Assembly (NCBI GenBank): GCA_000004985.1
Contig: GG739043.1
From: Naegleria gruberi
Lineage: Eukaryota
DNA: 37,049 bases
Direction: 5' to 3' (one strand)
The translations under genes and the position numbers were made by a program. Position 1 is the first letter of the stretch; each line of letters begins with the position of its first letter. Under the pieces are notes generated by a model. The model had not been told where the DNA came from. It did no database searches and was given only the letters and a program-made list of their open reading frames with translations. Below, one piece after another: positions 1 to 37,049 of the stretch.

Positions 1-9
1 TATTCATAA

Positions 10-693
10 ACGATTTGGAGAGAGCTGGAGAGTGCACAAAGCGAATCCTATTTCATTTATACAGCAGATGAAACGTACAACTCAATTAACATTGTCGATT
101 TTGAACCAGCTATTTCTGCCACATCCGAAAATCAAACCTTGAACGAACTTGCTAAAAAGATTTGCACAAATCTTGGTTTAACTGGAACTTTCTATCAGAC
201 TTGTTTGTTCGATGTAATTTCAACTGGTGACACTTCCTTTGCAATGGCTAGTGCTAATGCAGTTGCTGCTGATGCATGTGAATCCAACCCAGCTTCCTGT
301 GCAAATGTTACCTGTCCAAACCATTGCAGTTTGAATGGAATTTGTTTGGATGGTGTATGTCAATGTTTATCAGGATTTTTGGGATCTGATTGTTCTGTTG
401 TGGATGCAAACGCTCAATTTGCCTCCATTATCATAGGAGCAGTTATTTCTGTTGTGGTTGTTTTGGTGATTATATTGGTGGCAATATTTGTCTTATTTTA
501 CATAGGTACCAAGCTGAAGAAAGGTTGGGGTGATAAACACAGAACAATACCAAGCATGGTTAGTATTGTGCCCACACTTACTGGAAAAGATGAAATACCA
601 ATGGATCATGGCAATATTGTAATGGACAATCAACATTACGGAACAGTTTTATTCCACAAGAAAACAAATCAAAGAACTCAAAATACTGCTTAA
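10..693 (+). CDS. 3'-terminal coding part of a type I membrane protein: extracellular region with a tenascin-type EGF-like domain (about 274-393), one TM helix (about 421-504), cytoplasmic tail of about 60 aa. The 5' end is outside the window or in an upstream exon.
   Basis: Frame 1 is open from nt 10 (a TAA sits at 7-9) to a TAATAA double stop at 691-696. The ORF track gives 139-693. The translation contains DACESNPASCANVTCPNHCSLNGICLDGVCQCLSGFLGSDC, which matches the spacing of tenascin/teneurin EGF repeats (CPxxCSxxGxCxxGxCxCxxGFxGxDC). A 28-residue hydrophobic stretch IIIGAVISVVVVLVIILVAIFVLFYI follows, then a basic stop-transfer KLKKGW, and an NVT glycosylation sequon lies on the extracellular side. 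M139 is not a plausible true start, since no signal peptide follows it. A possible acceptor ..tttcatttatacag|cag lies near nt 62, so the exact 5' exon boundary is unresolved. Confidence 0.65.
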   Translation, partial: TIWRELESAQSESYFIYTADETYNSINIVDFEPAISATSENQTLNELAKKICTNLGLTGTFYQTCLFDVISTGDTSFAMASANAVAADACESNPASCANVTCPNHCSLNGICLDGVCQCLSGFLGSDCSVVDANAQFASIIIGAVISVVVVLVIILVAIFVLFYIGTKLKKGWGDKHRTIPSMVSIVPTLTGKDEIPMDHGNIVMDNQHYGTVLFHKKTNQRTQNTA

Positions 694-2012
694 TAAATCG
701 AACATGTTTCAGTTTTTCTCTCTTCTATTTCAAATCTATGTTCAATCCAAAATCTTATCTAACATCTTTGCACTACTCCACTTTCAGATATGGTCACAAC
801 AAAATTGCTCGAAACAATTCCACGAAGATTGCTCATTTTCTCCAGTCCACAGAATTTGCAGTTGTTTGTTCGAGAGAAGTACAATGTTCTGAAATTCTTT
901 TGAAGAAATCTTGTAGAATAATGGTTGAAGACCAATCTTGAAAGAAAATATCTAGCTAATTTCATTTCTGCTATTGTTGTGCATAATTTGCAAGGAGTTT
1001 TGATATTGGATAATTGGAGCCTATCTGTCACATTTTGTAAATCTGAAATAGTCTTCTAAGTCATTCTATCATTAAACAGCTGCAAGAATAATTTTTCATA
1101 GGAAAACCAAACGTTCCGAAATTGCTTGGACCCTTGTAGATTGTGATGAGTTTTTCCCCCAATTCCAAAGAAGTGAACCCTTGAAAAAGGTTCAGGTAAA
1201 ATAATCCTCCCTATCTGTCTCCTCAATTCCCAAATAAAATCTAATTCCATATGTATTGTTTTTCATTCACTTAATAGAGTTGCTCATTAATAATACTCCA
1301 TTTCTTCCACCCAATGAAATGTAATTTGGTGGCACCTATCCATCTCTTTTGTGTTTGTATTAACTCCAAATCTGTTGTAAGCTTTATATACATACGAGTA
1401 TGTGAAAATATCTCACATCCATGTTGTTTACACATTGAAGAATTGAATTGTCTGAAAAATCCATATATGCCCTTCTCTAAATCCAATCTGAACAAATTTC
1501 CTCTTCTCGGATTTCCAAATTTACCAAATCCAATAGAATCCCTTGTCCTTAATTGTTGCACCCAAATGTTCCCTCTCCTTCTCCGAACAACAACAATTCT
1601 ACAATTTTGAAATAATTACTCTACCCCAACACGATTGATTGTTATTATTAATAGGGAGGGAATCAATCAACATCGATGATGAGAGAATTGGATCCGAGTC
1701 TCCAGCATTAACCTTCATCCGAGTCTCTCCATTATTATTGTTCTTGTTCCACTTAAAAACCTATTACAAAATATTCTTCTTCATGATTCAAAACATGAAC
1801 GGAAAACCATCCATAACAAAATAGCCTACAATAATAAGCAGTAAGAAATTCCCTCCGCTATTGTTGCAGCTTAATATCGCTTCAACTTATTGTTTGCTTT
1901 TTTTTTCGTTTTTTTATTTTTGCTCTTTTTCAGTGCCTTAATTGGCACCGTTAGAAATGCTGCAATTTATCCATTCTGTAAGAGATAAAGAGATTCAAAG
2001 ATATGAAGCATG

Positions 2013-2017
2013 AAAAA
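2013..2017 (-). terminator. RNA polymerase III terminator (T5 run) immediately 3' of the 5S gene
   Basis: Plus-strand aaaaa at 2013-2017 is TTTTT on the minus strand, directly abutting the 5S 3' end at 2018. Confidence 0.55.
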
Positions 2018-2135
2018 GACTACAGCACCACAGGTTCCCAAGTTGTCTCCAACCTCAGTACTGATGTGGCTCGACGATGCTTAACTTCTCAAATCGGACG
2101 GGATGAGGTGCATTCATCGTGATATGGCCGTAGCC
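2018..2135 (-). rRNA. 5S ribosomal RNA gene, 118 nt
   Basis: The reverse complement of 2018-2135 reads GGCTACGGCCATATCACGATGAATGCACCTCATCCCGTCCGATTTGAGAAGTTAAGCATCGTCGAGCCACATCAGTACTGAGGTTGGAGACAACTTGGGAACCTGTGGTGCTGTAGTC. It contains the conserved eukaryotic 5S blocks: a 5' xCTACGGCCATA start, the CATCCCGTCCGAT box-A/loop-C region, GAAGTTAAGC, GTACT, GGTTGGAGAC, and a 3' GGTGCTGTAG. The 5' end (GGCUACGGC) pairs with the 3' end (GCUGUAGUC) to form helix I. A T5 run follows directly on the same strand. Confidence 0.85.
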
Positions 2136-2249
2136 ATTCATTTTACTAAAATAAGAATTATTAACAATCCTTCTTACAAAGCTGAATTTTTCAAGTTTCA
2201 ATTCCATGTAGAGAATAATTTATTTAATAATTAAAATTCTAATAATTCA

Positions 2250-2268
2250 TTCGAAATCAATTCGAAAT
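2250..2268. promoter_or_regulatory. Tandem ttcgaaat motif (2250-2257 and 2261-2268), about 50-65 bp upstream of the ATG at 2315
   Basis: Direct repeat of an 8-mer whose core TTCGAA is palindromic. Its position fits a proximal promoter element, but there is no functional evidence. Confidence 0.2.
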
Positions 2269-2314
2269 TTAGCTTCAAGTCATCTGTCATCCCAGTCAAA
2301 AAAATCAACAAAAA

Positions 2315-3008
2315 ATGAGTAGTCTCGAAAAACTATCAACCTACACACACGAGTTGGAAAGTGTCGAGTCAAAGATTGAAGAAAACATCACCACTCTTCG
2401 TCGTCTAAACATTACCAATCAATCGGATCCAAATTTTATTTCCTCACAAATTTCCACACTATCCGAAACCATTGAAGAATTATTGGAAAAATGTAGGAAA
2501 TTATATAACAAGATTAATAACTTGACAAAGAATGATCCATCCGTTGAAAATCAAGTATCCGATACCAAGAAGAAACACAAGGAAATTATTGCCAAGTTGA
2601 GAGCAAGTTACAAACAATCAAAAACATTTATTGAAACTAAAGCAAAGGGGTTGAATGATGGTAAATCATCAAATAACTCTGCTTTAGAATCAACAAATTC
2701 CAATTTAACATCAAATTCATCATCATCAGCAACAAATAGTGGTGGTGCTTCTGGTGGTGGTAAAAAGGAAGGTTTCTTTACATTTGCAAACAAATTGAAT
2801 GAAGGAAAGAATTCATCCAATGCCATTGAAGAAGATGATGTTGTGGAAGTTAAGAGAAACAGTGATGCTGATGTGACAAATATGTACAAGGGAAATGCCA
2901 ATCTGACACAGGAACAACGTCAAAGGCACGATGAAATTGAAAAGGAATTATTTTCTGAAGTATTTTCAACTCAGAAGGAATGTTTGGACATTATCGATCG
3001 TTTGAATA
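2315..3008 (+). CDS. 5' part of a protein-coding gene (start codon present, 3' end lost in the N-run): predicted coiled-coil N-terminus followed by a Ser/Asn/Gly-rich low-complexity region. Function unknown.
   Basis: ATG at 2315 sits in an A-rich context (caaaaaATGagt). There is an uninterrupted ORF of 231 codons up to the gap. No GTAAGT donor occurs inside it. Codon usage is GGT/TCA/GAA/AAT-biased like the other coding segments. The antisense ORF 2608-2901 is a low-complexity mirror and is rejected. The ORF-track extension to 7042 is an artefact of the Ns. Confidence 0.65.
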
Positions 3009-6000
3009 ANNNNNNNNNNNNNNNNNNNNNNNNNNNNNNNNNNNNNNNNNNNNNNNNNNNNNNNNNNNNNNNNNNNNNNNNNNNNNNNNNNNNNNNNNNN
3101 NNNNNNNNNNNNNNNNNNNNNNNNNNNNNNNNNNNNNNNNNNNNNNNNNNNNNNNNNNNNNNNNNNNNNNNNNNNNNNNNNNNNNNNNNNNNNNNNNNNN
3201 NNNNNNNNNNNNNNNNNNNNNNNNNNNNNNNNNNNNNNNNNNNNNNNNNNNNNNNNNNNNNNNNNNNNNNNNNNNNNNNNNNNNNNNNNNNNNNNNNNNN
3301 NNNNNNNNNNNNNNNNNNNNNNNNNNNNNNNNNNNNNNNNNNNNNNNNNNNNNNNNNNNNNNNNNNNNNNNNNNNNNNNNNNNNNNNNNNNNNNNNNNNN
3401 NNNNNNNNNNNNNNNNNNNNNNNNNNNNNNNNNNNNNNNNNNNNNNNNNNNNNNNNNNNNNNNNNNNNNNNNNNNNNNNNNNNNNNNNNNNNNNNNNNNN
3501 NNNNNNNNNNNNNNNNNNNNNNNNNNNNNNNNNNNNNNNNNNNNNNNNNNNNNNNNNNNNNNNNNNNNNNNNNNNNNNNNNNNNNNNNNNNNNNNNNNNN
3601 NNNNNNNNNNNNNNNNNNNNNNNNNNNNNNNNNNNNNNNNNNNNNNNNNNNNNNNNNNNNNNNNNNNNNNNNNNNNNNNNNNNNNNNNNNNNNNNNNNNN
3701 NNNNNNNNNNNNNNNNNNNNNNNNNNNNNNNNNNNNNNNNNNNNNNNNNNNNNNNNNNNNNNNNNNNNNNNNNNNNNNNNNNNNNNNNNNNNNNNNNNNN
3801 NNNNNNNNNNNNNNNNNNNNNNNNNNNNNNNNNNNNNNNNNNNNNNNNNNNNNNNNNNNNNNNNNNNNNNNNNNNNNNNNNNNNNNNNNNNNNNNNNNNN
3901 NNNNNNNNNNNNNNNNNNNNNNNNNNNNNNNNNNNNNNNNNNNNNNNNNNNNNNNNNNNNNNNNNNNNNNNNNNNNNNNNNNNNNNNNNNNNNNNNNNNN
4001 NNNNNNNNNNNNNNNNNNNNNNNNNNNNNNNNNNNNNNNNNNNNNNNNNNNNNNNNNNNNNNNNNNNNNNNNNNNNNNNNNNNNNNNNNNNNNNNNNNNN
4101 NNNNNNNNNNNNNNNNNNNNNNNNNNNNNNNNNNNNNNNNNNNNNNNNNNNNNNNNNNNNNNNNNNNNNNNNNNNNNNNNNNNNNNNNNNNNNNNNNNNN
4201 NNNNNNNNNNNNNNNNNNNNNNNNNNNNNNNNNNNNNNNNNNNNNNNNNNNNNNNNNNNNNNNNNNNNNNNNNNNNNNNNNNNNNNNNNNNNNNNNNNNN
4301 NNNNNNNNNNNNNNNNNNNNNNNNNNNNNNNNNNNNNNNNNNNNNNNNNNNNNNNNNNNNNNNNNNNNNNNNNNNNNNNNNNNNNNNNNNNNNNNNNNNN
4401 NNNNNNNNNNNNNNNNNNNNNNNNNNNNNNNNNNNNNNNNNNNNNNNNNNNNNNNNNNNNNNNNNNNNNNNNNNNNNNNNNNNNNNNNNNNNNNNNNNNN
4501 NNNNNNNNNNNNNNNNNNNNNNNNNNNNNNNNNNNNNNNNNNNNNNNNNNNNNNNNNNNNNNNNNNNNNNNNNNNNNNNNNNNNNNNNNNNNNNNNNNNN
4601 NNNNNNNNNNNNNNNNNNNNNNNNNNNNNNNNNNNNNNNNNNNNNNNNNNNNNNNNNNNNNNNNNNNNNNNNNNNNNNNNNNNNNNNNNNNNNNNNNNNN
4701 NNNNNNNNNNNNNNNNNNNNNNNNNNNNNNNNNNNNNNNNNNNNNNNNNNNNNNNNNNNNNNNNNNNNNNNNNNNNNNNNNNNNNNNNNNNNNNNNNNNN
4801 NNNNNNNNNNNNNNNNNNNNNNNNNNNNNNNNNNNNNNNNNNNNNNNNNNNNNNNNNNNNNNNNNNNNNNNNNNNNNNNNNNNNNNNNNNNNNNNNNNNN
4901 NNNNNNNNNNNNNNNNNNNNNNNNNNNNNNNNNNNNNNNNNNNNNNNNNNNNNNNNNNNNNNNNNNNNNNNNNNNNNNNNNNNNNNNNNNNNNNNNNNNN
5001 NNNNNNNNNNNNNNNNNNNNNNNNNNNNNNNNNNNNNNNNNNNNNNNNNNNNNNNNNNNNNNNNNNNNNNNNNNNNNNNNNNNNNNNNNNNNNNNNNNNN
5101 NNNNNNNNNNNNNNNNNNNNNNNNNNNNNNNNNNNNNNNNNNNNNNNNNNNNNNNNNNNNNNNNNNNNNNNNNNNNNNNNNNNNNNNNNNNNNNNNNNNN
5201 NNNNNNNNNNNNNNNNNNNNNNNNNNNNNNNNNNNNNNNNNNNNNNNNNNNNNNNNNNNNNNNNNNNNNNNNNNNNNNNNNNNNNNNNNNNNNNNNNNNN
5301 NNNNNNNNNNNNNNNNNNNNNNNNNNNNNNNNNNNNNNNNNNNNNNNNNNNNNNNNNNNNNNNNNNNNNNNNNNNNNNNNNNNNNNNNNNNNNNNNNNNN
5401 NNNNNNNNNNNNNNNNNNNNNNNNNNNNNNNNNNNNNNNNNNNNNNNNNNNNNNNNNNNNNNNNNNNNNNNNNNNNNNNNNNNNNNNNNNNNNNNNNNNN
5501 NNNNNNNNNNNNNNNNNNNNNNNNNNNNNNNNNNNNNNNNNNNNNNNNNNNNNNNNNNNNNNNNNNNNNNNNNNNNNNNNNNNNNNNNNNNNNNNNNNNN
5601 NNNNNNNNNNNNNNNNNNNNNNNNNNNNNNNNNNNNNNNNNNNNNNNNNNNNNNNNNNNNNNNNNNNNNNNNNNNNNNNNNNNNNNNNNNNNNNNNNNNN
5701 NNNNNNNNNNNNNNNNNNNNNNNNNNNNNNNNNNNNNNNNNNNNNNNNNNNNNNNNNNNNNNNNNNNNNNNNNNNNNNNNNNNNNNNNNNNNNNNNNNNN
5801 NNNNNNNNNNNNNNNNNNNNNNNNNNNNNNNNNNNNNNNNNNNNNNNNNNNNNNNNNNNNNNNNNNNNNNNNNNNNNNNNNNNNNNNNNNNNNNNNNNNN
5901 NNNNNNNNNNNNNNNNNNNNNNNNNNNNNNNNNNNNNNNNNNNNNNNNNNNNNNNNNNNNNNNNNNNNNNNNNNNNNNNNNNNNNNNNNNNNNNNNNNNN

Positions 6001-7030
6001 NNNNNNNNNNNNNNNNNNNNNNNNNNNNNNNNNNNNNNNNNNNNNNNNNNNNNNNNNNNNNNNNNNNNNNNNNNNNNNNNNNNNNNNNNNNNNNNNNNNN
6101 NNNNNNNNNNNNNNNNNNNNNNNNNNNNNNNNNNNNNNNNNNNNNNNNNNNNNNNNNNNNNNNNNNNNNNNNNNNNNNNNNNNNNNNNNNNNNNNNNNNN
6201 NNNNNNNNNNNNNNNNNNNNNNNNNNNNNNNNNNNNNNNNNNNNNNNNNNNNNNNNNNNNNNNNNNNNNNNNNNNNNNNNNNNNNNNNNNNNNNNNNNNN
6301 NNNNNNNNNNNNNNNNNNNNNNNNNNNNNNNNNNNNNNNNNNNNNNNNNNNNNNNNNNNNNNNNNNNNNNNNNNNNNNNNNNNNNNNNNNNNNNNNNNNN
6401 NNNNNNNNNNNNNNNNNNNNNNNNNNNNNNNNNNNNNNNNNNNNNNNNNNNNNNNNNNNNNNNNNNNNNNNNNNNNNNNNNNNNNNNNNNNNNNNNNNNN
6501 NNNNNNNNNNNNNNNNNNNNNNNNNNNNNNNNNNNNNNNNNNNNNNNNNNNNNNNNNNNNNNNNNNNNNNNNNNNNNNNNNNNNNNNNNNNNNNNNNNNN
6601 NNNNNNNNNNNNNNNNNNNNNNNNNNNNNNNNNNNNNNNNNNNNNNNNNNNNNNNNNNNNNNNNNNNNNNNNNNNNNNNNNNNNNNNNNNNNNNNNNNNN
6701 NNNNNNNNNNNNNNNNNNNNNNNNNNNNNNNNNNNNNNNNNNNNNNNNNNNNNNNNNNNNNNNNNNNNNNNNNNNNNNNNNNNNNNNNNNNNNNNNNNNN
6801 NNNNNNNNNNNNNNNNNNNNNNNNNNNNNNNNNNNNNNNNNNNNNNNNNNNNNNNNNNNNNNNNNNNNNNNNNNNNNNNNNNNNNNNNNNNNNNNNNNNN
6901 NNNNNNNNNNNNNNNNNNNNNNNNNNNNNNNNNNNNNNNNNNNNNNNNNNNNNNNNNNNNNNNNNNNNNNNNNNNNNNNNNNNNNNNNNNNNNNNNNNNN
7001 NNNNNNNNNNNNNNNNNNNNNNNNNNNNNN
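3009..7030. other. Unresolved or masked sequence (4022 N)
   Basis: Run of n. The 3' part of the 2315 gene and the upstream part of the ankyrin-repeat gene are hidden here. Confidence 1.
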
Positions 7031-7436
7031 TATTTAATTTAATATTATTTATAATATTAGGATGTAAGTATTTTAATATTTAATTTAATATATTTTATAA
7101 TATTAGGTTGTAAGTATTTTAATATTTAATTTAATTTTATATTTATAATATTAGTTTGTAAGTATTTTAATATTTAATTTAATATTATTTATAATATTAG
7201 GATGTAAGTAATTTAATATTTAATTTAATATTATTTATAATATTAGGTTGTAAGTATTTTAATATTTAATTTTAGTTTATATTTATAATATTAGGATGTA
7301 AGTATTTTAATATTTAATTTAATTTTATATTTATAATATTAGTTTGTAAGTATTTTAATATTTAATTTAATATTATTTATAATATTAGGATGTAAGTATT
7401 TTAATATTTAATTTAATTTTATATTTATAATATTAG
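7031..7436 (+). repeat. Tandem array of 9 intron-like units (the first is truncated by the gap), about 43-45 nt each. Each unit starts GTAAGTAT, ends TATAATATTAG, and is separated from the next by exactly 3 nt: gat, gtt, ttt, gat, gtt, gat, ttt, gat.
   Basis: Unit coordinates: ..7060, 7064-7106, 7110-7154, 7158-7200, 7204-7246, 7250-7294, 7298-7342, 7346-7388, 7392-7436. The 3-nt spacers are at 7061-7063, 7107-7109, 7155-7157, 7201-7203, 7247-7249, 7295-7297, 7343-7345 and 7389-7391. Units come in a 43-nt variant (..aatattatttataatattag) and a 45-nt variant (..aattttatatttataatattag), arranged as a rough 3-unit higher-order repeat (43-gat, 43-gtt, 45-ttt). Confidence 0.9.
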
Positions 7437-7523
7437 ACACCATTATACACTGCTTGCCAAAATGGTTATTTAGAAATTGTTAAATTATTATTATCATGTA
7501 AAACAATTGATGTTAATTTGGGT
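7437..7523 (+). CDS. Ankyrin-repeat exon (87 nt, phase 0/0) encoding TPLYTACQNGYLEIVKLLLSCKTIDVNLG
   Basis: It directly follows ..attag and is followed by gtaagta. The translation matches the ANK consensus (TPLHxAxxxGHxxVVxLLLxxGADVN). It is 85-90% nt-identical to the start of the next exon at 7711. Confidence 0.7.
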
Positions 7524-7710
7524 GTAAGTATTTTAATATTTAATTTATATTTATATTTATAATATTAGCGTGTAAGTATTTTAATATTTAATTTAATTTT
7601 ATTTATAATATTAGAAAGTAAGTATTTTAATATTTAATTTAATTTTTATATTTATAATATTAGTTTGTAAGTATTTAATATTTAATTTAATTTTTATTTT
7701 TATATATTAG
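7524..7710 (+). repeat. Second array of 4 intron-like units (45, 43, 46 and 44 nt) with 3-nt spacers cgt, aaa, ttt
   Basis: Units are at 7524-7568, 7572-7614, 7618-7663 and 7667-7710. Spacers are at 7569-7571, 7615-7617 and 7664-7666. It is the same unit family as 7031-7436. Confidence 0.9.
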
Positions 7711-8346
7711 CCACCATTATACACTGCTTGCCAAAATGGGCATTTAGAAATTGTTAAACAATTACTTCAACATCCAAATATTAACATAAATTACACATGG
7801 TCAGTGAATGGAATTAATATTCAAACAATTAAAAGTGACATGGAAAAAGAACAACAACTATTAAAAGAACAATCGGAACAATTAAAATTTAACCAACTAG
7901 AAATGGAAAGATTAGAAAGAGAAAGAATTAAAAAATTAGAAATGGAAAGAATTGAAAAGGAAAGAATTGAAAAAGAATGTTTACTAAAAATAGAAAGAGA
8001 AAGAAAAGAATTAGAGAAAAAACAATCATTCATAATCACATCTGAAACATTTTCAAAATTATGTTCACTCAACCAACAAGTTGATAATAATAGAAGAAAA
8101 GTTGAAAAACAATTTGAATCGATTCAATCATTTTCTTCTTCTATTCAAATTAAGAAAGAATTTCAAGATGAATATTTAACAATTTGTAATAATTTAAATA
8201 ATTGTTGTAATTTAATTGAAAGATTAACAAGTAATAATTATAATATTGAAAATAATGAACATTTATTAACTATTAATAATTTAATGAATAATATTAGAAC
8301 TATATTGGAATTTATTAATAATCAAAAATATTTATTAAATACAATC
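7711..8346 (+). CDS. Exon continuing the ankyrin-repeat gene: second ANK repeat (PPLYTACQNGHLEIVKQLLQHPNININ), then an E/R/K-rich predicted alpha-helical or coiled-coil segment (about 7861-8025), then an Asn-rich low-complexity region. It runs into the second N-run.
   Basis: Frame 1 is open from the acceptor at 7710/7711 to the gap. The ORF-track start at M7804 is internal, because the upstream ANK codons are in the same frame. The translation includes EMERLERERIKKLEMERIEKERIEKECLLKIERERKELEKK followed by N-rich sequence (NNLNNCCNLIERLTSNNYNIENNEH..). The antisense ORF 7821-8072 is a low-complexity mirror. Confidence 0.7.
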
Positions 8347-36206: not shown

Positions 36207-36389
36207 GTGAAAAGCCTTGTTGACCAGTGTAATTCTCCTCCTGTCCATTCCTCTCGGAAGAAATTCAAACACATACTCGAGAATATCAATATTTAATTGA
36301 TCCATGTTCGTGTCCACAATTGTGGCAGTATTTTGCAATGATGATGATGTTGATGATGGCGATGATGATGAAGAAGAATTAAAGGACAT
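36207..36389 (-). CDS. N-terminal exon or segment of an F-box protein: Ser-rich N-terminus followed by an F-box motif (about 36207-36296). The gene continues into the N-run.
   Basis: The reverse complement of 36207-36389 translates as MSFNSSSSSSPSSTSSSLQNTATIVDTNMDQLNIDILEYVFEFLPRGMDRRRITLVNKAFH, with ATG at 36387-36389. LNIDILEYVFEFLP....ITLVNKAF fits the F-box consensus (LPxEILxxIFxxL.......VCKxW). It is the real 61 residues of track ORF 8322..36389. The overlapping track ORF 8315..36289 is in another frame and has no protein-like features. Confidence 0.7.
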
Positions 36390-36796
36390 TGAAAGGGATG
36401 ATATTGTTGTGTATTTTGTTTTGTTGAGTTTTGATTCAATTGTTAGCGTAAAGGAAGAAATTTGAATTCAACTTGGAGATTGAAGGCATTCTACTTTCCA
36501 TGCTGGAGCGAAAGATAATTTTCTCTGAGAGAAAAAGCAGAGTCTTGAGAAAATATTTCTCTCATCATCATGAAAGAAGGTTTTCTTTGGGATTGATTTA
36601 TGAATTTTATATTTTTTATTTATGAATTTTATATTTGAAATAAAAGACTAACGGCAGGTTTAAGCGCGCAAAACGATTACACCTCCCAATCAACAACAAT
36701 TAAGTTTAATTGTAAACAAGAAGATAATCATGTAATTTCTGCATCTCTGAACAAAACAAAAAAGACTTGAACAGCCATCATCATTATCAAATAATA
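36390..36796. promoter_or_regulatory. Putative bidirectional promoter or intergenic region, about 400 bp, between the divergent F-box gene (-) and the membrane-protein gene (+)
   Basis: Two start codons face away from each other, at 36389 (-) and 36797 (+). The region is AT-rich and has no ORF. It contains a short direct repeat at 36597-36636 and an isolated GC-rich patch (ggcaggtttaagcgcgcaaaacg, about 36654-36676). Confidence 0.4.
36597..36636. repeat. Direct repeat tttatgaattttatattt x2 (copies at 36597-36614 and 36619-36636, period 22 bp)
   Basis: Exact 18-nt duplication read directly from the sequence. It lies in the shared upstream region of the two divergent genes. Confidence 0.8.
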
Positions 36797-37049
36797 ATGG
36801 CGGAGCACATTAACTTTTATCGAGATGAATTCGGAAGAAATTTTGTCAATATAACTTCTTTAGATCATTTTGCTCCGATTGGAGTGAGTGGTATTTCCAT
36901 TGGAATTGAATTTGGTTTTCTGGCAAGTTTCATTGCTTGTTGTGTAGCATTGGTTTCTCTCTTGAATCATTTAAAAAAGATTCAATTGCCAACGAATGCC
37001 AAGAAATTCTTCATTCTGGTTTCGGTATTTATGGGCATTCAGATGGTAA
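36797..37049 (+). CDS. N-terminal part of a membrane protein: short N-terminus with an NIT sequon, then two predicted TM segments. The ORF runs off the window end.
   Basis: ATG at 36797 sits in an A-rich context (aataataATGgcg). Frame 2 is open to the window end (84 codons). The translation is MAEHINFYRDEFGRNFVNITSLDHFAPIGVSGISIGIEFGFLASFIACCVALVSLLNHLKKIQLPTNAKKFFILVSVFMGIQMV. Two hydrophobic stretches are separated by a short basic loop, a topology compatible with a 7TM receptor-like N-terminus, but the family cannot be assigned. It is absent from the ORF track only because no stop lies within the window. Confidence 0.55.
   Translation, partial: MAEHINFYRDEFGRNFVNITSLDHFAPIGVSGISIGIEFGFLASFIACCVALVSLLNHLKKIQLPTNAKKFFILVSVFMGIQMV

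Follow-up and report, generated by a model that had tools for sequence, protein, structure and literature searches.

A canonical 5S rRNA gene of Naegleria gruberi, probably one of many dispersed chromosomal copies

The window, by which is meant the whole stretch of 37,049 nucleotides analysed here, comes from a Naegleria gruberi scaffold (contig GG739043.1) and consists largely of N (31,881 of 37,049 bases, or 86%). Real sequence is confined to positions 1-3009, 7031-8346 and 36207-37049, about 5.2 kb. Because a gene model, P0001, jumps the first of the two N runs (3010-7030, 4,021 bases, and 8347-36206, 27,860 bases), these runs look like real assembly gaps and not like masking. The visible sequence contains a single 5S rRNA gene, flanked by the 3' part of one protein-coding gene and the 5' part of another (Table 1). 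An earlier note on this DNA had called the gene solitary. One copy is indeed all that the visible DNA holds, and with 31,881 of the bases given as N the description applies to those 5.2 kb; further 5S copies may lie within the gaps.

Table 1. Features of the visible sequence around the 5S rRNA gene, in window coordinates
Feature	Position	Strand	Basis
EGF-domain single-pass membrane protein gene, 3' part	1..693	+	open frame to stop at 693
T5 run, putative Pol III terminator	2013..2017	-	read from sequence; C comes next
5S rRNA gene, 119 nt (GGCUACGG...GUAGUCU)	2017..2135	-	RF00001, fold, covariation, identity to L011/L007
Box C-like element (GAGGTTGGAGACAACTTG), +80 to +97, putative	2039..2056	-	the gene's best match to the box C pattern of Feng et al. 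2012, 2 mismatches
Box A of internal control region (AGTTAAGCATCGTCG), +50 to +64, putative	2072..2086	-	exact match, Feng et al. 2012 pattern
AT-rich TATA-like stretch (TTAATAATT), -29 to -21	2156..2164	-	read from sequence
NPSN11-type t-SNARE gene, first 231 codons, ended by N gap at 3010	2315..3009	+	protein identity; tblastn

The ATG at 2315 lies 180 bp from the 5' end of the 5S gene on the opposite strand, and the two genes are divergent, as had been described. An NPSN11-like SNARE begins at this ATG; the start is conserved, and its orthologues open with MSSQDKL or MSSLEKL. The 231 codons read from the ATG match the N. gruberi predicted protein P0001 with 100% identity; identity to the NPSN11 proteins of other species is 57-60% for N. 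lovaniensis and N. fowleri and 41% for Willaertia. The earlier note had measured the locus against Dictyostelium. That frame does not fit, since the window belongs to N. gruberi, a heterolobosean, with a neighbouring protein 100% identical to that of the species; of the explanations then offered, that of a different lineage was borne out, namely Heterolobosea and not a dictyostelid. Across the 5S gene from the SNARE gene, the closest coding sequence that can be recognised belongs to the EGF-domain protein, which has Pfam matches to EGF_Teneurin, EGF_2 and RGM_C-like domains. The 1.3 kb between this gene and the 5S gene (694-2016) matched no Pfam family, and a comparison with 5.8 billion proteins yielded no homologue. 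Several open frames of 50-114 aa run through it on the minus strand, and it may be non-coding or the site of an orphan or decayed gene.

Beyond the first gap the sequence has a character of its own. Segment 7031-8346 has a GC content of 15.6%, as against 33-37% in the remaining scaffold, and at 7031-7710 within it a 46-47-nt unit is repeated in tandem about 14.7 times, an array that is broken up by two ankyrin-repeat coding pieces. Each unit resembles a mini-intron (GTAAGT...TATAATATTAG), and the 3-nt spacers between units read gat, gtt or ttt. The gene model P0001 (391 aa) fuses the first ~216 SNARE residues (window 2315-2962) to the product of 7031-8346 across the 4-kb gap. Its part beyond the gap contains the string DVFDVDFD, which corresponds to 3-nt micro-exons between the tandem intron-like units, followed by ankyrin repeats and a coiled coil. 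The orthologues are complete t-SNAREs of 344-348 aa, and the P0001 model is almost certainly chimeric.

The feature at 2017-2135 is a genuine, intact and canonical 5S rRNA gene. The covariance-model search that had been proposed as a check (Rfam RF00001, cmscan) matched window positions 2135 to 2017 of the minus strand with 105.4 bits, against a gathering threshold of 38, and an E value of 2.6e-22; the match spans model positions 1-120 of 120, and no non-canonical pairs were flagged. The 118-nt gene previously placed at 2018-2135 is thereby borne out, the Rfam range being one base longer at the end that meets the first T of the T run; the mature 3' end of the RNA could lie at 2018 or a few U beyond. 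This was the sole Rfam match above gathering in the visible window, in which there was no match to SSU, LSU or 5.8S rRNA, no snRNA neighbour of the 5S gene and, according to ARAGORN, no tRNA gene. A scan of 1-3009 at a permissive E value added only sub-threshold miRNA noise. The gene also accounts for the local GC island, as had been proposed, because GC content is 51.3% across 2017-2135 and falls to 29.9% in 1880-2016 and 22.9% in 2136-2314.

The structure of the RNA is preserved throughout. Folded alone, the 119-nt sequence adopts the canonical three-way junction as its minimum free energy structure (-41.5 kcal/mol, z score of -2.61 against shuffles), and all helices are intact. Covariation was examined in an alignment of the window 5S sequence with six related 5S sequences from metagenomes (five of them distinct). 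In this alignment, 97.4% of cells in the three-way junction are paired, and 14 of the 39 pairs have undergone compensatory change on both sides, which is strong support for the fold; none of 500 shuffles matched the real alignment, and slid partners pair in 31-41% of cells.

At its 3' end, the gene runs directly into five T residues, read from 2017 to 2013 on the minus strand, which agrees with the T5 terminator of the earlier description. With the first of these the Rfam match ends. The stretch AGTCTTTT is the last that is common to all four Naegleria-type loci (the window and three loci described below), and TTTT is present in 4/4. With at least four T directly at its 3' end, the gene has the T run expected of a type 1 Pol III gene. 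The putative internal control region and the upstream AT-rich stretch are listed in Table 1. Roles for box A, the box C-like element and the AT-rich stretch are putative and are assigned from sequence; TTAATAATT may be an upstream promoter element. When three loci were compared, AT-rich stretches with TA steps were found also in L007 and L012, at about -30 to -13, in a position that is not fixed. In N. gruberi, according to Feng et al. 2012 (PMC3369914), 5S genes have a TATA box as well as an internal control region. The same study found no TFIIIA homologue in N. gruberi (PMC3369914), and an internal-promoter mechanism is for this reason assumed by analogy.

Three further Naegleria-type 5S loci were recovered from metagenomes. 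A scan with a 24-nt 5S pattern yielded one of them, L007, along with five loci from other protists, and a spurious open reading frame overlapping the 5S gene, used as a protein query, yielded L011 and L012. No further Naegleria copies were found in prokaryotic genome and viral contig collections. The 5S gene of L011 is identical to that of the window (119/119) and that of L007 differs at one position (118/119; U24 to A), on which evidence the window sequence is canonical. The L012 gene is a variant scoring 92.3 bits, with the substitution T33C and 2 nt (CT) inserted in loop C; it lies between tRNA-Met(CAT) and tRNA-Glu(TTC) genes in a small Pol III gene cluster (209-764, 1255-1328). L011 and L012 were both found in one ENA metagenome. 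The 5S gene of L007 (539-657) and a 361-aa open reading frame (823-1908) are divergent, the former lying upstream of the ATG of the latter at a distance of 166 bp. The similarity of all three loci to the window is limited to 2013-2137, that is, to the 5S gene, TTTT and 2 nt upstream, and the window shares no flanks with any of them at the DNA or protein level.

The other-protist contigs present a different picture. In L010 (1-2328), L008, L005 and L006, genes for 5S, U6, U3, U5, U1, U2, U4 and SRP RNAs lie within 1-2 kb, and L006 has two 5S copies about 1 kb apart. These small-RNA clusters are composed, like the window gene, of Pol III genes and have a 24-nt 5S stretch in common with it; they differ in that their 5S sequences, from another protist, are ~76% identical to that of the window, and in that the visible DNA has no tRNA or snRNA gene next to the window copy.

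The state of the scaffold invites the question of whether a 5S read, from an artefact or a contaminant, was misjoined to Naegleria sequence. The scaffold is 86% N, has an aberrant GC content at 7031-8346 and bears a gene model almost certainly chimeric across the gap, all of which would fit such a join. The 5S gene itself, however, lies within a gap-free stretch of 3,009 bp, at a distance of 180 bp from what is unmistakably the Naegleria NPSN11 orthologue, and the same 5S sequence recurs in independent environmental contigs of Naegleria type, which makes such a misjoin extremely improbable.

A second possibility is that the window gene is silent, transcription having ceased, and represents either a 5S pseudogene or a retroposed copy derived from RNA. 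Among the 279 5S genes catalogued in the species (see below) some are certainly defective, and 15 of the listed entries are shorter than 110 nt; moreover, loci that resemble each other over a transcript-length unit and its T run, and nowhere else, could equally have arisen through an RNA-mediated process. The window gene, in contrast, is full length and its score of 105.4 bits is as high as that of any related copy. Its helices are all intact, the T run is complete and an AT-rich upstream region is present. An A-rich tail directly 3' of the gene is absent, as is a convincing target-site duplication: the best direct repeat flanking the gene matches at 14 of 18 positions, which is chance level, since it was matched in 48 of 200 shuffles. 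Because an identical 5S sequence exists elsewhere in unrelated flanks (the 119/119 identity to the independent locus L011), because there is neither a poly(A) tract nor a significant duplication, and because similarity ends at the T run, a silent copy is very unlikely, and the retroposed copy suggested in the earlier note loses its footing on the same tail, repeat and identity evidence. A 5S retropseudogene or 5S-derived SINE was likewise considered and rejected: no A tail, target-site duplication, truncation or shared non-5S body was seen.

A related view would make the window gene the 5S-derived head of an element that is SINE-like or otherwise mobile, or assign it to a larger repeat that spreads 5S genes through the genome. 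In favour of this view, copies of the gene are many and dispersed, and an A-rich tract lies ~90-125 nt downstream (window 1895-1935). Against it, L007, L011 and L012 share with the window nothing beyond the 5S gene, TTTT and the 2 nt upstream, Pol III would be halted by the T run that immediately follows the gene and would not reach a downstream body, and 694-2016 is without a protein homologue or Pfam match. Membership of a mobile or larger repeated unit is thus highly improbable.

Conservation of the site between species was examined at the NPSN11 loci of N. lovaniensis (L001), N. fowleri (L002, L003) and Willaertia magna (L004), each taken with flanks of 10 kb as far as its contig extended. 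No 5S gene was found at any of these loci within that range, and by tblastn the SNARE gene alone is common to them and the window. Conserved synteny of the 5S site was for these reasons rejected, and the site is taken not to be conserved between species; at about one 5S copy per 150 kb, however, absence from L001-L004 is also what chance would lead one to expect.

The place of the window gene in its genome can be read from the published catalogue. Feng, Sun, Xin & Wen 2012 (PLoS One 7:e36878; PMC3369914) listed 279 putative 5S genes in the JGI N. gruberi assembly. One row of their Table S1, R33401, gives scaffold_213 2016-2132 (PMC3369914). These coordinates are within 1-3 nt of the Rfam match, the first base of the published gene, a T, corresponding to window 2132, and by matching coordinates alone scaffold_213 is very probably the window and the entry the window copy, no difference between the two being apparent. 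It is the one copy listed on scaffold_213 and belongs, with a similarity of 0.75, to the modal class, in which a count made here from Table S1 places ~160 of the 279 entries. The statement that the gene had been missed by ORF-based annotation holds for protein-gene models, but not for the published record, in which the gene is apparently catalogued. The published gene set, from the same organism and with the same strand logic, also agrees with the present analysis in that both place the genes apart from rDNA and give them a putative internal control region and a TATA-like stretch.

When Table S1 was parsed, the 279 entries fell on 117 scaffolds, of which 57 carry a single copy; of the entries, 264 measure at least 110 nt. 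The median distance between neighbouring copies on the same scaffold is 34 kb and the shortest 462 bp; 9 of the 162 intervals between neighbours are at most 2 kb, and one is below 1 kb. Density in N. gruberi comes to about one copy per 150 kb. From this spacing and these scaffold counts it follows that the family is dispersed, with loose clusters. A tandem array, with head-to-tail copies at a period of a few hundred base pairs, was not seen either in the visible 5.2 kb, which has one copy, or in the spacing of Table S1, with its median of 34 kb. There is a mismatch at this point between the dispersed coordinates of Table S1 and the 'tandem: Y' that Table 1 of Feng et al. records for N. gruberi.

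Nor is there a sign of linkage to the large rRNA genes, none of which was matched in the visible window. The N. gruberi 5S genes are scored N for 'located with rDNA units' (Feng et al. 2012; PMC3369914). Naegleria's circular extrachromosomal element (CERE), of ~14 kb and present in 3,000-5,000 copies, carries single 5.8S, 18S and 28S genes (PMC5805870), and no 5S gene has been reported on it (PMC5805870). The suggestion that the window gene is a dispersed chromosomal copy is upheld, and in the visible sequence it is unlinked to rDNA; the arrangement of the copies genome-wide, which the earlier note had proposed to check, is dispersed according to the published table. What does not survive is the idea that a single 5S gene standing among Pol II genes is informative: with 279 putative copies on 117 scaffolds, this is the documented normal state in N. 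gruberi, and the window gene is real, canonical, apparently already known and ordinary for its species.

Other organisms show both likenesses and differences. The 5S gene of Dictyostelium discoideum is carried on an extrachromosomal rDNA palindrome. Dictyostelium and Naegleria alike keep their large rRNA genes outside the chromosomes, on a multicopy element, but that of Naegleria has been described with 5.8S, 18S and 28S genes only, and its 5S genes are chromosomal and dispersed. A closer parallel exists in Schizosaccharomyces pombe, Neurospora crassa and Acanthamoeba, in which single 5S genes, each with its own Pol III promoter and T run and with unique flanks, are scattered among Pol II genes. 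Naegleria differs from these organisms in belonging to the heterolobosean lineage and in that its large rRNA genes are not chromosomal, and its 5S copy number is higher than that of the fungi.

Taken together, the window gene is best read as one of ~260-280 dispersed chromosomal 5S rRNA genes of Naegleria gruberi, a reading to which a probability of about 0.9 is attached. As the general biology of eukaryotic 5S genes would have it, Pol III would transcribe the gene from the minus strand by way of the internal control region, with box A at +50 and the box C-like element at +80; the AT-rich element near -25 might assist initiation, and transcription would end in the T5 run. The resulting RNA of ~119 nt would then join the large ribosomal subunit. 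Since no 5S gene has been reported on the rDNA element of Naegleria, the supply of 5S RNA has to come from the chromosomal copies. The identity of the window gene to independent copies suggests that it is transcribed, most likely as a working member of the family; a canonical sequence by itself, however, is no proof of transcription.

In Naegleria, copying or homogenisation of the 5S genes might proceed by exact transcript-length units, with an RNA intermediate or with short-tract gene conversion among hundreds of dispersed loci, and the genes might also settle by preference ~170-180 bp upstream of divergent Pol II genes, where they could serve as promoter-proximal boundary elements. In favour of this scheme, similarity among the four loci stops at the gene ends, and two loci have the divergent layout at ~170-180 bp; the occurrence of that layout at 166-180 bp in two loci could, however, simply reflect a compact genome, and the scheme as a whole is very unlikely.

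Beyond correct annotation, the locus has little importance. For the 5S family of the species, the published coordinates do not support the published label 'tandem' and describe instead dispersed copies with loose clusters. For the locus, the correct label is a 5S rRNA gene of Naegleria gruberi, and not a sign of unusual genome organisation.
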